Source: Deltaproteobacteria bacterium
GTDB lineage: Bacteria > Myxococcota > SpSt-1050
DNA: 24,097 nucleotides
Assembly (NCBI GenBank): GCA_037441045.1
Contig: JBBISZ010000004.1
Location: forward strand, 1-24,097
Direction: 5' to 3'
The notes under the pieces: model-generated
Databases searched by the model: none
Seen by the model: only the letters and a program-made list of their open reading frames with translations
Told to the model about the DNA's origin: nothing
Part shown: one piece after another, positions 1 through 10,754 of the stretch
How the letters are laid out: every line of letters starts with the position of its first letter
Position numbering within the stretch: position 1 is the stretch's first letter
Translations under genes and position numbers: made by a program

Positions 1-3000
1 AATATATATTTACGCAATCGCAACAATACCGAAATAATAAATATTCTTGATCAGTTGAGTCATCAGAAGTTAAATGAATTTTATTTAAGAACCATCCTGT
101 TTTTTATGGGACGGATATTTGAAGAGAGGCTCAATGATCCGGAGATGGCTCTCAAATCCTATGAACGGATATTCATTATAGACCCCTCAGATGCAGATGC
201 TGTAAAGTCCATTGAAAATATACTTCTGGTAAAAAGGGCGTATTCGGAGGTAGTATCTGTTTTAAAACAACATTCAAATGCGCTTCCGCCAGACAAGAGA
301 GTGGATATATACGGAAAGATCGTCTCCCTGTACAGAGATCGTCTTGCGGATACAGATTCAGCAATATACTTTCTCAATGAGATACTGAAGATAAAATCAG
401 ATGATATATCAGCGATGGATATTCTTCTTGAACTGTATGTAAAGAAAAATGATTATCAACAGATAACGGATATACTCAATCGTATTTCAAAACTCACCAC
501 CGATAAAAACATTCTGGCAAATATATATTTTAGACTGGGGACAATCTTTGAGGAGAATCTTTCTGACGAAGTGCAGGCGATCGAATATTACAAGAAGATA
601 GTTGAGATCTCTTCTGCATATCAACCTGCCTATGCTGCACTTGGGAGACTTCTTGCCAAGCACGGCAAATGGGAGGATCTGGTAAATCTTATGGAGATGG
701 AGATTGCACAGACTGAAGATGCTCTACAGAAGGTCGCCCGTTATTATAAAATGGCAGAGATTATAGAACTCAGAATTCAGGATCTTAATAGAGCAATAGG
801 TGTTTACAAGAAGATTCTTCAGATAAGATCTTCATATCTGCCCGCCCTCAAGGCACTCGGTACACTCTACGGCAAGCTTGGTATGCATCAGGAACTCATA
901 GATATGTTTGAGGAGGAGATAAAAATAACTGAAGATAAGGAACAGATTGCCTTTCTTCTGGACAAGATCGGGATTACATACGAGGAGAAATTAAACAATA
1001 AGGAGAAGGCAGCAGATACATACAGGAGGATTCTGGAAATAATTCCCGATCATCTCCCTACCATCAGGACACTCGCCAGACTCTACGCCCGACTCGGTAG
1101 ATGGGAAGATCTTATCAAGATGTGTGAGATAGAATCAGAACTCATAAAGGATCAGATCCAGATTGGTGAGACTTATGAGGAGCATCTCAGGAACATAGAT
1201 GAAGCAGTCAGGTATTACAAGAAGGCACTTATGATATCTCCAAATTATCTACCTGCCTTGAAATCGCTCGGAAATATTTATTTATATCAGGAGAGATATG
1301 AAGAACTTATAGATATGTATAAGAGAGAGATAGAGGTTACAAGGAATCAACCTCACAATATTTCTCTTTATCACAAGATTGCACAGATTTATGAGGATAG
1401 GCTCAATATGCCTGAAAGGGCGATATCTACCTATGAAGAGATATTGATGCTGGATCCTTATAATCTCCCCGCCATCAATGCCCTCAAGAATATCTATCTC
1501 AAAATGCAGAACTATGACAGGTACATTGAAATCCTGATAAAGGAGGAGCAACTGGTTACTGATGTCAATCAGAAGGCATACATTTTATATCAGATTGGTG
1601 GGATATATATAAATAGACTTTCCAACTTCAACAAAGGTATCGAATATCTAAAAAAGTCAATTACTATCAACAAAGATAATAGTAGCGCAAGAGTTTCATT
1701 GCTTGATTCACTAAGACAGAATGGAAGATATTCAGAACTCGCTGATATGTTGATTGAATTTGCAGGACAGAAGAAGACAGAGGCGGAGAAGATAGAGATC
1801 TACTGGGAACTTTCGCAGATATTCTACTTTAAACTCAAAGAGATAAATCGCTCAATAATGTATCTTGAAAAGATAATTGCTATACAGCCGAACTATATAA
1901 GGGCACTTATGATGCTGGCGACAATATACAGAGAGGAGAAGGATTATATCAAGCTTATAACTGTATTGCAGAAGATTGTTAATCTTGACCTCAATCCCGA
2001 TATTCTGGTCTCATATCATCTTGAGATTGCGGCGCTCAAAGAGACTGTGATGAAGATGCCATCCGAGAGCTATATACATTATATAAAAGTACTTGAGATT
2101 CAGCCCGATAATCAGATTGCCATTGATGCACTTGAACGTGCTTACAGTAAAAATATGGATAATCGTGGGCTGGAAATTCTCCATTCACACTTCCTTTCGA
2201 AAACCATTTCTGATAAAGAAGAGAAGGCGGTATTAAATTTTAAAATTGCAGCAGTACTTGTAAATTACCCTGAGACATCTGAAAGGGCTTATAACATTCT
2301 TATGGAGACCATAAGAGAGAAGCCCGATTACCTTCCTGCTCATGTTCTTCTTCTGGAATATTACCGCAATAAGGGTAAATATGAAGAGTTTGTAAATGAA
2401 TCTCTCGATCTTTGTGAACAGATATCCAATACTGGAATAAAGAGAAATATACTGAATCAGGCGGCAGTGGTTTTGAAGGAGAAACTCAATAATTCTGAAA
2501 AGGCAACAGAGCTTCTTATGAAGGCTTTTGAGCTGGCTCCATCGGACGGGGTGGCTTTTTCTCATCTGGAGGGACTGCTTATATCACGGAATAAGACTGA
2601 TGCGCTTCTCTCTATTTACAGCAGGAGAATTTCTGCGATCAACGATAATACAGAGAGGGCGTTACTATACATTAAAATGGCTCGCCTCCTCGAAAATGAT
2701 CCGTCAAGGATTAATGAGGCAATCACGGCATATCAGAGCGCAGTTGCTATAGATCCTTATAATGAATATGCGCTTATTCCTCTTTCCAATCATCTTATAG
2801 CAGGTAAGATGTATGATGAGGCTATAAACTGTCTCAATGCAATAGCATCATGCTCAAAGTCTCAGGAGGTACTGAAAAATACATATCTCTACCTTGGAAC
2901 GCTCCTGTATAATCACAGACAGGATTTCAGTAATGCTCTAACCAATTTTCAAAAGGTTGTTTCAATAGAACCCAATAATATCCCGGCGCTTGAATATATG

Positions 3001-6547: not shown

Positions 6548-7366
6548 CTAAGGTTCAAAATAGTATTTACCTTTGAATCTATCGTCATCAAATATCAGAA
6601 TTGGCTTTGCTGATTCATTCTTCTCAAATCTGCCTTTTATTTGTTCATTTTTATAATTGATAATAATTTCGTTCTCTTTTAGTCTGTATGTACCACTCCC
6701 CCTGAGTCCCTTTAGATCTGGATCAAACGGGGCGTATATAAATATATAATTGCCTTCAAGACCAAGGAATAAAAACTTCTCATAATCGCCTTCTGATGTT
6801 CCACCCTGCCATCTTCCCCAGTACTGCGAATCATCCACCTTTTGCTTGAATATCCTATTGATACCGGATTGAATAAGATTATCAGGTATTCCAGAGAATT
6901 GTATGTCCCTTATGCAGATATGATCTGATTCTTTATTATAGACATCCGTAATCGTAATTAAGAGACGATTTGTAGTAATGGGTGGGGAGAGTGAGAGTGT
7001 CTTCGATAATAGTCCTTCATCCAGATATAAGGTGTTCTTTGAGAACTCACCTGCTATCTCAACCTCTTTTGCTCCACCTGCCAGTATGTCCTTATTCACC
7101 TTGGGGTTAATTCCATTCTTTATTGTAACTTTTTTTATCTCAACAGTCTTTGCAAAATAAAGTATTATTTCCTCTCTTCCGCCAGGTGAGTGTTCAAAAC
7201 ACCAGAGAGTCTTTTCATCATTATCGAAGGCATTGGAATAATGGAATTTCATAGGATCTTCTGAATCCTTCTTGAAGTCTGTAGAATATAGATACATCAG
7301 TTGTGCCGCAGAACTGACTCCTGAACCAATTGATAATAAGAAGAATATCATAAGTATCTTTTTCAT
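6548..7366 (-). CDS. Exported protein with a discoidin/F5-8-like (glycan-binding-type) N-terminal domain and a beta-rich C-terminal domain
   Basis: Signal peptide [20 protein letters not shown]; [12 protein letters not shown]...IILYF...IKKVTIKNG...ICIRDIQF is typical of discoidin-like domains. ATG 7366 preferred over the TTG at 7405, which coincides with a -35-like hexamer. Confidence 0.6.
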
Positions 7367-7377
7367 AGCGAAAAGCA

Positions 7378-7405
7378 AATATATCCTAAAAATAAGAGAT
7401 TTCAA
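7378..7405 (-). promoter_or_regulatory. Putative sigma70 promoter TTGAAA-N16-TATATT, 11 nt before ATG 7366
   Basis: Read directly on the minus strand; no SD before the ATG. Confidence 0.45.
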
Positions 7406-7468: not shown

Positions 7469-8215
7469 TCACTTAAAACATTTGCATATAAGAGAAACAG
7501 AGATAGCGATAAGGGCATAAAATGCAACAATCGTATATCCAGTTGGCAAATCCATTAAGTAAGAGATAATAATTGCAATCAGATTAATGACAATTCCGAG
7601 AATCCATGCACCCATGAGTTTTATAGAGAATTTATCAGTAAAAAAAGACATTATATATGCGGGGGCAACCAGAATTGAAAATACTACCAGCACTCCTGCC
7701 AGATTTACGGAGCTTGTAACAGTTACTGCAAATGAGACAAAGAATAGTATCTCTCGTAGATTTCCATTAAGTTTTTCAACTACAAAATAGATAAAGAGGG
7801 CAATTATTGCATAGAGAATAGATGTCTTAATAAGTTCAGCCTTTGTTATAAAGAGGATGTCTGATGCTGTAAGCTTCTGAACCTCCTCCATTCCGTGTGG
7901 ATTTTTTGAAAGAAGGACAATAGACATTGAGATTCCGAGTGCATAGATAAGACCTATAAAAGCCTCGTGGCTTATATTCTTTCTGGATGTGAGCGCAATG
8001 AGGAGCGCCCCTATAAGTGCAAAAGTCAATGATATTGGATAGACATATTTTCCATCAAAGAGTAAAAAGGCGATGGCGGTTCCTAAAGCCGCCATCTGCC
8101 CAATTGCAAGGTCAGTAAATATTATCCCGCGTCTGATGATATTGATGCCATAATAAGAATGAATTCCCAGAAGGACAGTTGCAAACAGAAAGCTGATAAA
8201 AAGGATATCTATCAT
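7469..8215 (-). CDS. Metal (Zn/Mn) ABC-3 family permease, ZnuB/TroD-like
   Basis: Highly hydrophobic; RRGIIFTDLAIGQMAALG and LAGVLVVFSILVAPA motifs; ATGA overlap with the upstream binding-protein gene. Confidence 0.88.
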   Translation of the reverse strand: MIDILFISFLFATVLLGIHSYYGINIIRRGIIFTDLAIGQMAALGTAIAFLLFDGKYVYPISLTFALIGALLIALTSRKNISHEAFIGLIYALGISMSIVLLSKNPHGMEEVQKLTASDILFITKAELIKTSILYAIIALFIYFVVEKLNGNLREILFFVSFAVTVTSSVNLAGVLVVFSILVAPAYIMSFFTDKFSIKLMGAWILGIVINLIAIIISYLMDLPTGYTIVAFYALIAISVSLICKCFK

Positions 8216-9108
8216 CTGGTTAACCTTTCAATAATAATATCATACATTGAAAATATATCCTTTGCCTCAGTAATACTCTTTACATCATAAGGGAGAATTA
8301 CAAATGGAATTTTGGTGGTTTCAGATAGTTGTTTTGTGGATTTTGATTCATGATAGTTATCAGTAATTATCTTATATACCTTCTCAGACTTAACCATGTT
8401 TGTGATCTCTTCTATATGTTTTGCAGTGGGAGGTATGCCAGGCTTTGGCTCTATCTCTGCTATTATTTTGCAATTGAGGTCCTTTGCGACATAGTTAAAC
8501 ATTCTATGGTACTGGATTAGTTTGCAACCCGAAATATTCTTAATCTTTTCATCCCATACTTTCCTCTTTTCATTAAATTTTTTTATTAGATTGTCATAAT
8601 TGGAGGCAAACAGGTCCTTCTTTTCTGGTCTTACCATTATAAGCGCATCTTTGACCCCTTCAGCAATCTTTGGAAAATTATTATAACTTAGATGATAATG
8701 CGGGTTACCTTCTGGATGAATATCTCCCTCTGATCTACTCACATTTTCAGGCTTATTAATAAGTTCTACTTTCTTTGATAGGTCAATCAGAAAGTTAGCG
8801 CCGGGATTTATCTTTGGATTGTTTGCCTGTTTTAAGAGAGGTGGAATAAAACCTATTTCAAGAGATGCTCCGTTTATAATCAGCAGGTCAGCCTGTCTCA
8901 GTTTTCCTATCAGGGATGGTTTGGGAACTACAAAGTGTGGATCCTCTGTCCCCTTTGCAAGAGATGTTACTTCTACATATTCTTTTCCAATCTCATGCAC
9001 AATAGATTCAATGTAGGGATATGATACCACCACTCTTATTTTCTCTTGTGCAAAAAGAGAGGAAATAAACGCAAAACAGAACAGTAATACAAATATCGTT
9101 TTTTTCAT
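8212..9108 (-). CDS. Metal ABC transporter substrate-binding protein, ZnuA/TroA (cluster A-I) family
   Basis: SD GGAGG then ATG 9108 (MKKTIFVLL signal peptide); EDPHFV, GDIHPEGNPHYHL, YHRMFNY and EPKPGIPPTAKH motifs. Confidence 0.92.
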   Translation of the reverse strand: MKKTIFVLLFCFAFISSLFAQEKIRVVVSYPYIESIVHEIGKEYVEVTSLAKGTEDPHFVVPKPSLIGKLRQADLLIINGASLEIGFIPPLLKQANNPKINPGANFLIDLSKKVELINKPENVSRSEGDIHPEGNPHYHLSYNNFPKIAEGVKDALIMVRPEKKDLFASNYDNLIKKFNEKRKVWDEKIKNISGCKLIQYHRMFNYVAKDLNCKIIAEIEPKPGIPPTAKHIEEITNMVKSEKVYKIITDNYHESKSTKQLSETTKIPFVILPYDVKSITEAKDIFSMYDIIIERLTR

Positions 9109-9124
9109 AGATAACCTCCATAAG

Positions 9125-10387
9125 TTAAAATGCATGGGCACCGTGAGGACCAATTGCAAAGTTGAGACTGAATATAAACTCCTGAATCGGGAACATTCTA
9201 TCTTCAAAATATCTACTATGGTCATAATTGTACTGCAGTCTCAGGCGAGAAAATTCAGTAAAATAGTATTCAATCATATATGAAAGCCTGTAAAGATTTA
9301 CAAGATCCATTTTCTCCTTTTCTCCATTTATCTTTATATCGGGCGAAAAAAGATAATCTCCTCTTATACCTGTTCTCCAGAGTTTATCAAACTTGAAGAC
9401 CAATTGTGCATAAAGTCCTGAGTTAACTTTCTCAAGTTTTAGTCTCTCTATATCACCATCTTCATTCATCTTTAAAAGGTCTCCGTCTATAATTCTGCCC
9501 AGATATTCGCTTTCAAAGGATAGATATCTGTAAGCATCAATGATATATTTATATGTAAATTCAAATCCATAAATAATAGTTCCATCAGCATTAATTGCAT
9601 GATCAGGTGTCTCGTCCATTTTACCTTCATCATGATGGGAATCCAGAAGATTTGATTGACCGTACATTATTGCACTGCCAAGAAGGAATACATTATCTCC
9701 AATATCAAAGGATGTCTTCAGATATCCTGTAAAGAGGGACGGTCTTGGTGAAGATTTTATCTCTTCTGAGCCAAAAACATAGCCATCAGCATTGAAAGAG
9801 ACAGCCTCGTCAGAAGAACCCTGATAGATTTCAGTTCCTAATTGAACAAAAGTATCTATTGGTAGTGTATAGGTAAGTCTGAGTCCTACATCTGTTAGTC
9901 CCTCACTCCCGAGAAGTGCATCATAAATAATTGGCGAATCATAAAAATCCCAGTTGTGTGCATGCTTCTGACTGTGCCTTAAGGCTCCACTCTTAAATTT
10001 GCCTGCTCTCAGAGCGAATCCATAAGGGAGAAATTTTGTGTCTGTATAGACCTCTTCAAGTTCAATGCCATGCCCAGGGGCTATAGTTGTAACAGCAAAA
10101 AAATCAAAAAAAGGATCCACCGGTGCTGAAAATGCGAGTTCGAGATAATTAAGGTAAAGACCTCTATTCTTATTCATATGCGAGTGGGGCGGATGGTGCA
10201 TAAATTCTGGTATTTCCAAACTCTCTCTCGATTCATCTTTAATGTCACTACTTATAAATGCCATATCGGCGATAAGAGAGAGATCGGGATTAAATTTATT
10301 CTGAATAAAAGGGTTCTCAGTAGCGTTTGAATAAAAAACTACTGAGATATACATAATACATACAAAGAATATTATCCTGCTTCTCAT
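9125..10387 (-). CDS. His-rich outer-membrane beta-barrel of the family often labelled 'zinc-regulated TonB-dependent receptor' (porin-sized, no evident plug)
   Basis: SD GGAGG at 10400-10396; signal peptide; alternating beta-strand pattern; FNPDLSLIAD, LEEVY, HSQKHAHNWDF, FTEFSRLRLQY and C-terminal GPHGAHAF motifs. Confidence 0.8.
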   Translation of the reverse strand: MRSRIIFFVCIMYISVVFYSNATENPFIQNKFNPDLSLIADMAFISSDIKDESRESLEIPEFMHHPPHSHMNKNRGLYLNYLELAFSAPVDPFFDFFAVTTIAPGHGIELEEVYTDTKFLPYGFALRAGKFKSGALRHSQKHAHNWDFYDSPIIYDALLGSEGLTDVGLRLTYTLPIDTFVQLGTEIYQGSSDEAVSFNADGYVFGSEEIKSSPRPSLFTGYLKTSFDIGDNVFLLGSAIMYGQSNLLDSHHDEGKMDETPDHAINADGTIIYGFEFTYKYIIDAYRYLSFESEYLGRIIDGDLLKMNEDGDIERLKLEKVNSGLYAQLVFKFDKLWRTGIRGDYLFSPDIKINGEKEKMDLVNLYRLSYMIEYYFTEFSRLRLQYNYDHSRYFEDRMFPIQEFIFSLNFAIGPHGAHAF

Positions 10388-10438
10388 TATTATAACCTCC
10401 TTAGAACAGGATAGTTAGACAAAAAAGTTTTAAAAGAA

Positions 10439-10717
10439 TTAATTAATTGCTGGAGGGCCTCTAATGAGATTTGATTTTGAATTGTTGTTCTTATAAAGTA
10501 CAATCTCGCCGTTATTTACAACTTCAGCGAGAATTGGAAGTTCTGAATTATTTATTTCCGATTCACAGGTATCGTTATTGTTCTGATATGAATGAAACTG
10601 ACATACAGGACAATTCTCCCGGGAATCAAAATTGTGAGAGGGGTGAAGCAGATCAAAAAGATTTAAATGGAAAAGGATAGGAAGTATAATGAAAAATTTT
10701 ATTGCTTTTCCATACAT
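10439..10717 (-). CDS. DUF2946-like leader ORF (CruR/CutF-like): signal-like N-terminus, His + CPVC, C-terminal RGPP arrest-type motif
   Basis: 92 aa: K4/K7 + hydrophobic F8-F16, H17/H25/H28/H42, C36-P-V-C39, R86-G-P-P89 three residues before the stop; 52 nt upstream of a metal-uptake OM barrel gene. Confidence 0.75.
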   Translation of the reverse strand: MYGKAIKFFIILPILFHLNLFDLLHPSHNFDSRENCPVCQFHSYQNNNDTCESEINNSELPILAEVVNNGEIVLYKNNNSKSNLIRGPPAIN

Positions 10718-10723
10718 GGCTTT

Positions 10724-10754
10724 AATATATAAACATATATGTCCGGTTTGTCAA
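10724..10754 (-). promoter_or_regulatory. Putative sigma70 promoter of the metal-uptake unit: TTGACA-N17-TATATA (or N19-TATATT), ending 8 (or 6) nt before ATG 10717
   Basis: Perfect TTGACA at 10754-10749; palindrome ACATATATGT (10733-10742) inside the spacer. Confidence 0.6.

Follow-up and report, generated by a model that had tools for sequence, protein, structure and literature searches.

CruR, the product of Bp2923 in Bordetella pertussis, is the prototype of the DUF2946 proteins, whose features include an export signal in >95% of members, a CXXC motif, a CXXC-RAPP spacing of 45 residues (+/-1-2), and a position as the first gene of metal operons (PMC9426467). A second leader peptide of this kind, the DUF2946-like CutF of the Rhodobacter capsulatus cutFOG genes, acts via an RNA stem that shields a Shine-Dalgarno (SD) sequence (PMC9973294). 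Described here is a candidate for the same class, found in a stretch of 24,097 nucleotides (nt) assigned to a Deltaproteobacteria bacterium of the Myxococcota (assembly GCA_037441045.1, contig JBBISZ010000004.1, positions 1 to 24,097; this whole stretch is referred to as the window). The element is an open reading frame (ORF) of 92 amino acids plus a TAA stop (10439..10717, minus strand, as are all window features given below), which lies just ahead of genes for an outer-membrane beta-barrel, a ZnuA-family binding protein and an ABC-3 family permease. The comparisons below make it quite probable that this ORF encodes a regulatory leader peptide of the CruR/CutF (DUF2946-like) class that has diverged too far to be recognized by the Pfam model.

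The C-terminal motif of such leaders is a known translational arrest signal. Both RAPP and RGPP support arrest in several unrelated contexts, with RGPP giving the most robust arrest in several model peptides and being refractory to EF-P (Fujiwara et al., PMC12992588). In vitro, CruR itself stalls the ribosome when the third motif codon occupies the P site and the fourth the A site, and the Arg of RAPP is irreplaceable in ApcA, ApdA, ApdP and SecM (PMC12992588). Proteomes are depleted of the two motifs, which are instead concentrated close to the C terminus of small proteins that are exported or membrane-bound and whose genes precede a variety of others, metal genes among them (PMC12992588). 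The leader in the window carries the R-[A/G]-P-P core as RGPP. A prior reading of the window from its letters alone (the sequence-only reading) had treated RGPP as a variant not known to it to be characterised; it is in fact competent for arrest in model peptides (PMC12992588), and it recurs in a DUF2946 protein described below.

Translation of the ORF places every motif of the sequence-only reading at the positions it had assigned. Residues H17, H25, H28 and H42 are all present, CPVC is C36-P-V-C39 (10612-10601), and R86-G-P-P89 (10462-10451) is followed by A-I-N and the stop. The ORF had also been placed 52 nt ahead of the barrel gene; it does lie directly upstream, but the gap is 51 nt. From C39 to R86 is a distance of 47 positions, so that 46 residues intervene. 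An N-terminal hydrophobic helix, the putative signal anchor, spans residues 2-24 (10646..10714), with K4 and K7 on its N-terminal side, and AlphaFold2, given a 54-sequence alignment, models it as a helix with pLDDT >90 (block pLDDT 91-93). It is followed by a candidate metal site in residues 25-42 (10592..10645), H25-P-x-H28 ... C36-P-V-C39-x-F-H42, proposed from the conservation of its Cys and His residues. The model has a second helix at residues 37-49, beginning at CPVC, and disorder from residue 50 onward. Residues 47-84 (10466..10579) form a spacer, and the candidate arrest motif I85-R86-G87-P88-P89 (10451..10465) ends three codons ahead of the stop. The predicted layout is thus an anchor in the membrane, then a His/Cys site, a spacer that is constant in length but not in sequence, and finally the Pro-Pro motif beside the stop.

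The sequence-only reading had proposed that this build is the one seen in DUF2946-type upstream ORFs (uORFs), and the published architectural features of CruR/DUF2946 are indeed present point by point. The two lysines followed by a hydrophobic stretch, the AlphaFold2 helix, correspond to the export signal or N-in/C-out membrane segment; C36-P-V-C39 corresponds to the CXXC; R86-G-P-P89, A-I-N and stop to the C-terminal motif; and the spacing of 46 falls within the published range. The expected logic is also that of CruR, in which a stalled ribosome keeps uptake on and metal releases the stall (PMC9426467). The window leader differs from CruR in lacking a detectable PF11162 match, in carrying RGPP rather than RAPP, and in having an extra conserved His cluster. 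The spacer behind it is 51 nt and AT-rich, against 162 nt, GC-rich, with Rho-dependent termination, in CruR; the genes that follow are the barrel, ZnuA-type and ABC-3 genes instead of a TonB-dependent transporter and a PepSY protein; the likely metal is Zn rather than Cu; and the lineage is non-proteobacterial and AT-rich. CutF shares with the leader its small exported product, a Cys motif and a C-terminal Pro motif; in CutF the downstream SD is held in an RNA stem, for which opening by a stalled ribosome has been proposed (PMC9973294; bioRxiv 10.1101/2025.02.05.636593), and a similar shielding may exist here. In contrast to the leader, CutF has CxxxC and an EF-P-dependent PPP-type motif, and copper induces its stalling, turning on a detoxifying oxidase; an importer operon is expected to have the opposite polarity. 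A further difference is that the candidate anti-SD sequence of the window leader lies inside the arrest codons themselves.

The leader also resembles the RAPP/RGPP arrest peptides at large (ApdA, ApdP, ApcA, SecM and a Streptomyces lividans set), in which a small uORF product, secreted or in the membrane, has R-[A/G]-P-P close to its C terminus (PMC12992588, PMC10951233). It shares with SecM an Ile before the Arg (G-I-R-A-G-P in SecM). The known peptides of this set differ in that they monitor Sec or YidC activity or head other genes, and none of those described in the texts consulted heads a ZnuA-type importer. A Sec- or YidC-monitoring role for the window leader was rejected, as no such gene lies downstream.

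Conservation in related loci provides evidence that the ORF is a real gene. A six-frame search of 41 related genomes recovered it from each of the 3 other species of the genus but from no further member of the phylum sample, and protein searches added further copies on metagenome contigs, giving 7 homologues altogether. Residues 1-46 show 71% mean identity across the 7, whereas residues 47-84 show only 14% and yet are 38 residues long in every one. H28 and H42 are invariant in a five-sequence genus alignment. The C terminus reads I-R-G-P-P in 6/7 and I-H-G-P-P in 1/7, with two or three unconstrained residues before the stop, and 46 residues separate the CxxC from the motif in 7/7. The sequence-only reading had asked for conservation of the ORF, CxxC, RGPP and linker length in homologous loci, and all four are kept; the linker sequence is not. 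A spacer that is fixed in length, free in sequence and predicted to be disordered fits a ruler and not a folded protein.

These data also bear on the trivial possibility of a chance ORF without function in an AT-rich spacer. Such a reading might draw on the absence of a Pfam match and on the fact that the ORF is unannotated in several public records. It is nevertheless rejected, at a probability we consider negligible, by the comparative data: the ORF is kept in the genus and in many phyla, with invariant motifs, fixed spacing and a conserved promoter. A profile hidden Markov model (HMM) built only from leaders outside the genus picks out the leader ORF end to end among the window's 226 ORFs (E 3.6e-9; next best E 0.3). 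As judged from these comparisons, the leader is a real conserved gene.

The distribution of the design is far broader than the genus. Homologues of the barrel gene occur in many phyla, always with ZnuA-type and ABC-3 genes behind them. Eighty loci were taken from genome contigs, and the region upstream of the barrel gene was scanned for a same-strand ORF with the pattern CxxC-(42..48)-x[AGS]PP-(1..6)-stop, and such an ORF is present in 61/82 loci with enough upstream sequence. Among the 59 non-duplicate leaders, the spacing between CxxC and motif is 44 in 24, 45 in 9 and 46 in 19 (52/59 together), and a hydrophobic N-terminal window is present in 59/59. The only invariant residues in the 54-leader alignment are C36, C39, P88 and P89, with H25 kept in at least 90%. 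The pattern is also specific for this location: CxxC-(40..50 aa)-x[AGS]PP with the stop no more than 8 residues away occurs in 62 of 6713 stop-to-stop ORFs of at least 40 aa from 84 related loci, and 56 of the 62 lie directly upstream of a barrel gene, leaving 6 of about 6650 (~0.1%) elsewhere. Several of the loci missed by the pattern have variants, namely RDPP, a single Cys or a frameshifted copy, and many family members have long leader-barrel spacers of 200-360 nt. Under their labels as recorded, the records with the leader design include Spirochaetota, Bacteroidota/Ignavibacteriota/Chlorobiaceae, relatives of Aquificales, Campylobacterota and Acidobacteria/Aminicenantes, as well as Thermodesulfovibrionales/Nitrospiraceae, Verrucomicrobia, Gammaproteobacteria and Myxococcota. 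The same leader and operon in so many phyla supersedes the suggestion of the sequence-only reading that the design belongs to a probable deltaproteobacterial lineage.

Several individual loci deserve comment. In L028, L033 and L035 (high-GC; labelled delta proteobacterium or Myxococcales), the leaders are longer, ~140 aa, with an extra CPEHG...H and a C-terminal K-N-S-P-P; these make up a separate subtype whose motif has neither Arg nor Ala. Two Leptospira loci from metagenome-assembled genomes (MAGs), L058 and L081, have RAPP- or RSPP-type leaders before the barrel module. The leader of L055, an Ignavibacteriota MAG, is split between two frames, with one piece ending past the CVIC region and the other carrying SHAPPQFS, which points to a leader in decay or else to a frameshift or an error of assembly. 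In an Elusimicrobiota MAG, a gene for a Fur-family regulator (L101:2967-3398; Pfam FUR E 3.2e-23) stands before the barrel gene in place of the leader, and this looks like alternative, transcriptional control of the same barrel module. Finally, many of the leader ORFs lack annotation in public records, several of which (L026, L029, L030 and others) do not call them as genes, so that surveys of annotated proteomes undercount the class.

The sequence-only reading that the leader heads a Zn-type uptake operon is supported by the genes that follow and by the ligand pattern of the binding protein. The first downstream gene (9125..10387) encodes a 420-aa porin-like outer-membrane beta-barrel without a Pfam family. 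Its AlphaFold2 model (pLDDT 81.5, pTM 0.79) has porins such as chitoporin, OmpT and OprP as its best structural matches, and its closest reviewed relative is the uncharacterised Aquifex protein aq_2168. Four of its His residues, H142, H144, H415 and H418, are invariant among 16 diverse homologues. Next comes the gene for a ZnuA-family (cluster A-I) substrate-binding protein (8212..9108; Pfam ZnuA E 8.7e-45), with its ATG at 9108 behind GGAGG, and then that for an ABC-3 family permease (7469..8215; Pfam ABC-3 E 3.7e-18), whose start overlaps the stop of the binding-protein gene. With a conserved promoter upstream of the leader (see below), no terminator-like site within or close to the leader-barrel spacer, and the ZnuA and ABC-3 genes behind, the leader occupies the position of first gene in a metal operon.

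The binding protein gives a clue to the metal. Its QYHRMFNY aligns with TQHAAFNY of AdcA and TSEGAFKY of MntA, both of them relatives of solved structure, so that the third ligand position has His, as in the zinc-specific AdcA, where the manganese-specific MntA has Glu. The ligand positions in this alignment follow the structures of cluster A-I binding proteins. On this basis the sequence points to a three-His, zinc-type site in the window's binding protein. Zn(II) is favored because of this site together with the His2Cys2-like site of the leader, and Cu because of family precedent; Zn(II) is therefore the most likely metal to be sensed, at a confidence of about one half on the sequence data, with Cu the main alternative.

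The type of operon also speaks to polarity. In an arrangement like that of CutF, periplasmic metal bound to the exported His/Cys site would slow export and induce stalling, and the operon would be metal-induced and handle excess metal. CutF, a DUF2946 member with an SD-shielding stem, works in this way and needs its signal peptide, and the leader described here has an export-type helix in the AlphaFold2 model. However, a porin, a periplasmic binding protein and an importer-type permease make up an uptake set, which should be repressed by metal, and in one lineage the leader is replaced by a Fur-family repressor gene, the kind of control typical of uptake systems. In addition, RGPP is intrinsically strong and refractory to EF-P, which fits stalling by default. 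We consider metal-induced stalling very improbable for this operon. The downstream uptake set and the intrinsically strong arrest at RGPP instead make the CruR polarity the best fit.

Two further features of the downstream region were noted. The barrel/ZnuA-type/ABC-3 module (window 7469-10387; loci L027-L111) lacks a gene for an ABC ATPase: in 61/64 related loci of at least 7 kb, no ORF with a Walker A motif and an ABC signature was found within ~3.5 kb on either side. The ATPase of the module is either encoded elsewhere or not used. A 285-aa ORF follows the permease gene on the same strand (6548-7405) and contains a glycan-binding domain of the F5/8 type C / NADase-translocation type; this ORF is outside the conserved module of the other phyla.

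The promoter region suggests how the leader is translated. A putative -35 box, TTGACA (10749..10754), lies upstream of the leader; CTTGACA is invariant in four aligned genus loci, and TTGACA is present in 6 loci. A putative -10 box, TATATA (10726..10731), lies 17 nt past the -35 box and 8 nt ahead of the leader ATG. Six loci (window 10718-10754; L002, L003, L004, L114 and L115) share the geometry TTGACA-17 nt-TAnAnT-7..9 nt-start codon, and none of them has an SD sequence before the leader start codon. This geometry places the transcription start at or beside the start codon, and so the leader is probably translated from an mRNA that is leaderless or nearly so. Two of the leader homologues would start at GUG under this leaderless reading. 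Comparison of the four genus promoters revealed no conserved operator palindrome of the Zur- or Fur-box type. The palindrome ACATATATGT in the window's promoter spacer is not conserved and was dismissed as an operator candidate.

At the other end of the leader, the codons of the arrest motif suggest a link to translation of the barrel gene. The Gly-Pro-Pro codons of the genus leaders read GGN CCU CCN. The Pro88 codon is CCU in 7/7 homologues, against 39% expected from the window's genes, while Arg86 is encoded by five different codons, which shows that silent sites are otherwise saturated. The resulting CCUCC (10452..10456), the candidate anti-SD, is the exact complement of GGAGG in the barrel gene's SD, AGGAGGT (10395..10401; invariant in 7/7 loci), 46-58 nt downstream. 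The intergenic spacer itself, from the leader stop to the barrel ATG at 10387, is 51 nt long (10388..10438) and measures 46-58 nt across the 7 loci. CCUCC and GGAGG are paired in the minimum-free-energy fold of 5/7 loci. In a longer-context ensemble the SD is predicted to be paired in 7/7 loci (0.64-1.0), with the Gly-Pro-Pro codons as its partner at 0.65-1.0 in 4 loci, 0.33 in 1 and ~0 in 2. When the footprint of a ribosome stalled on Pro88 is masked in the window, SD pairing drops from 0.90 to 0.29. A separate bias is seen at the Pro89 codon (10451-10453 and homologues), which is CCC in 5/7 although CCC makes up 18% of Pro codons in the window genes. This rare codon in the A site might favor stalling; SD pairing does not explain the choice of CCC.

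The ORF, its motifs and their spacing are observed to be conserved, as are synteny, promoter geometry and codon choice; from these we infer arrest, polarity, metal and coupling along the following lines. The operon mRNA would start at or beside the start codon of the leader. A ribosome translating the leader would arrest at I-R-G-P-P, Pro88 occupying the P site and Pro89 the A site. At this point helix 2-24 and the H25/H28/C36/C39/H42 cluster would be just out of the exit tunnel, because the spacer of fixed length sets the CxxC 46 residues from the motif. The stalled ribosome would cover CCUCC, leaving the barrel SD free (or would block Rho), and the barrel, binding protein and permease would be made. 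When metal is plentiful, it would bind the nascent His/Cys site, and the resulting folding or compaction would pull on the chain and release the arrest. Termination would then follow three codons on, CCUCC would pair with GGAGG, and uptake would be turned off. Release of the SecM arrest by Zn-dependent folding of a nascent zinc finger has reportedly been demonstrated, and would be an experimental precedent for this step. On the sequence evidence, the leader is therefore most likely a diverged arrest peptide of the CruR type, and uptake would be shut off once metal, probably Zn, is bound by the nascent chain.

Several results weigh against this reading, beginning with those on ancestry. The HMM check that had been suggested for the leader ORF, a search against Pfam DUF2946 (PF11162; gathering score 23.7 bits), was negative, with nothing at E<=1. 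An exhaustive search of 1.84 billion representatives with the genus profile returned close relatives of the leader only. Any homology to CruR thus appears to lie in architecture, synteny and borderline intermediates. The DUF2946 members characterised to date sense copper, not zinc. A search for transcript data from the organism found the sequence only in DNA metagenome runs (subsurface, sediment).

The intermediates are nonetheless suggestive. Of the syntenic leaders, 8/54 reach DUF2946 at E<=0.01, the best at 1.9e-5, and the leader of L031 (18.8 bits, E 0.003) aligns from its CxxC to the end of the profile. Bona fide DUF2946 proteins were sought in 81 genomes and found at two loci, both at threshold level. 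One of them, L113, has CPFC, 47 residues and IRAPP; the other, L112 (24.8 bits), ends in PRGPP plus three residues and lies ahead of a barrel gene. Other searches extended the family little: a single-sequence word-indexed search with the leader ORF found close relatives only, and the same type of search with the 54-leader profile added four weak matches from other lineages, none annotated as DUF2946. A six-frame search for DUF2946 in 151 genomes of the phylum gave mostly sub-threshold matches in other families and none in the four genus genomes. It is probable from these comparisons that the leader works like CruR and is a very distant relative of it rather than a member recognized by the Pfam model.

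One more profile match provides a lead in another direction. NCBIfam NF047702 (the LIC10965 family of Leptospira) gives a weak tail match to the leader (E 0.016; 15.5 bits, against a cut-off of 130), in which leader residues 31-89 align with the last 59 profile positions and end exactly at the second Pro. The gene for LIC10965 adjoins the TonB-dependent receptor gene LIC10964, and both are induced in a host model (PMC3953431). By this sub-cut-off match, LIC10965 may be another leader of the class.

The variability of the Arg position is a second type of difficulty for the CruR-like reading. The residue is H, N, Q or K in 21/59 family members, and one genus homologue has HGPP; such replacements abolish arrest in the model peptides. 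The motif types in the 59 leaders are RAPP (31), HAPP (9), NAPP (7), RGPP (5) and a few others, frequencies that are partly set by the search itself, since the pattern allowed A, G or S alone at the second motif position. The family may thus not depend on classical RAPP arrest. Either the members without Arg stall less strongly or by a different route, or the motif serves some further role.

In an alternative reading, the ORF would encode a small metal-binding protein that is stable and anchored in the membrane, for example a metallochaperone or an accessory subunit of the ATPase-less transporter, and x[AG]PP would serve as a structural or interaction motif. Consistent with this alternative, conservation in the protein is highest in the membrane helix and the His/Cys residues, the Arg varies (H, N, Q, K) in spite of being essential for RAPP arrest in model peptides, and a module without an ATPase might need extra parts. 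A stable protein is not expected, however, to have a spacer of fixed length, free sequence and predicted disorder, nor a motif that is always 1-6 residues from the stop in an ORF that is always directly upstream of the barrel gene. Ordinary proteins strongly avoid RAPP and RGPP, whereas small exported products of uORFs are enriched for them at their C termini (PMC12992588), and CutF itself is undetectable in cells (PMC9973294). A stable protein is accordingly judged improbable, and the arrest leader remains preferred.

The anti-SD coupling to the barrel gene does not hold evenly across the loci. The SDs of L003 and L116 are predicted to pair elsewhere, and masking the stalled ribosome's footprint clearly frees the SD in the window alone of the 7 loci. 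Locally, the RNA is predicted to fold no more stably than shuffled sequence does (z 0.11), and CCUCC follows in part from any Pro-Pro pair. Both the anti-SD and the SD arm are invariant and so carry no covariation signal.

An alternative is an arrest leader with the coupling of CruR, in which the stalled lead ribosome blocks Rho, release of the stall leads to termination before or within the barrel gene, and the CCUCC-GGAGG complementarity is incidental. This is the demonstrated mechanism of CruR, with the same uptake-gene logic (PMC9426467). In addition, the spacer in the window is G-poor (3 G in the 37 nt before the SD), spacers are long in many family members (200-360 nt) as they are in CruR (162 nt), and SD sequestration is not uniformly predicted. 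The genus spacer, on the other hand, is short and AT-rich (51 nt in the window, 46-58 nt in the genus) and not C-rich, unlike the long region with a Rho utilisation site expected for attenuation of the CruR type; a rut-like C-rich tract is not evident. The CCU codon for Pro88 in 7/7 and the invariant SD likewise argue for the RNA pairing. Rho coupling of the window's operon therefore seems unlikely. Within this genus, SD unmasking is considered the more likely coupling, with a roughly even chance of being correct, and Rho-dependent termination the main alternative; the latter may fit the relatives with 200-360-nt spacers better.

A bolder proposal goes beyond the single locus. Widespread, largely unannotated nascent-peptide sensors might control the ATPase-less module, with a His2Cys2 knuckle 44-46 residues from the peptidyl-transferase center that senses Zn(II) rather than Cu and acts as a metal-triggered force generator, and with a leaderless mRNA and CCU CCN arrest codons serving as anti-SD in this lineage. 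We hold this combination only tentatively, as a possibility still short of probable. If it is true, a sensor, a ruler, a brake and an RNA switch would all be contained within one 92-codon ORF.

Part of this picture is already known, namely the class of metal-sensing arrest uORFs and the RGPP core as an arrest motif. What appears to be new is a leader subfamily invisible to Pfam, its steady pairing with a porin, ZnuA-type and ABC-3 importer module that is absent from the CruR and CutF papers, its spread across many non-proteobacterial phyla, and the compact genus layout, with a probable leaderless start and a candidate anti-SD within the arrest codons. Of the papers listed in searches of open-access texts, none had a CruR/CutF-type term together with ZnuA.

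Metal-sensing arrest peptides such as CruR and CutF are a recent discovery and have hitherto been tied to copper and mostly to Proteobacteria. The locus described here and its relatives suggest that the design is far wider in use, standing before a different transporter with a zinc-type binding protein, in sequences that have been missed by Pfam and by gene callers. The ruler of 44-46 residues, kept across phyla, predicts where in the exit path the metal site must sit. With its probable leaderless start, 51-nt spacer and possible anti-SD, the version in the window is a convenient minimal system for work in vitro. More generally, the survey gives a regulatory context to an uncharacterised and widespread barrel family, including Aquifex aq_2168, and to the ATPase-less ABC-type importer module with which it is associated.

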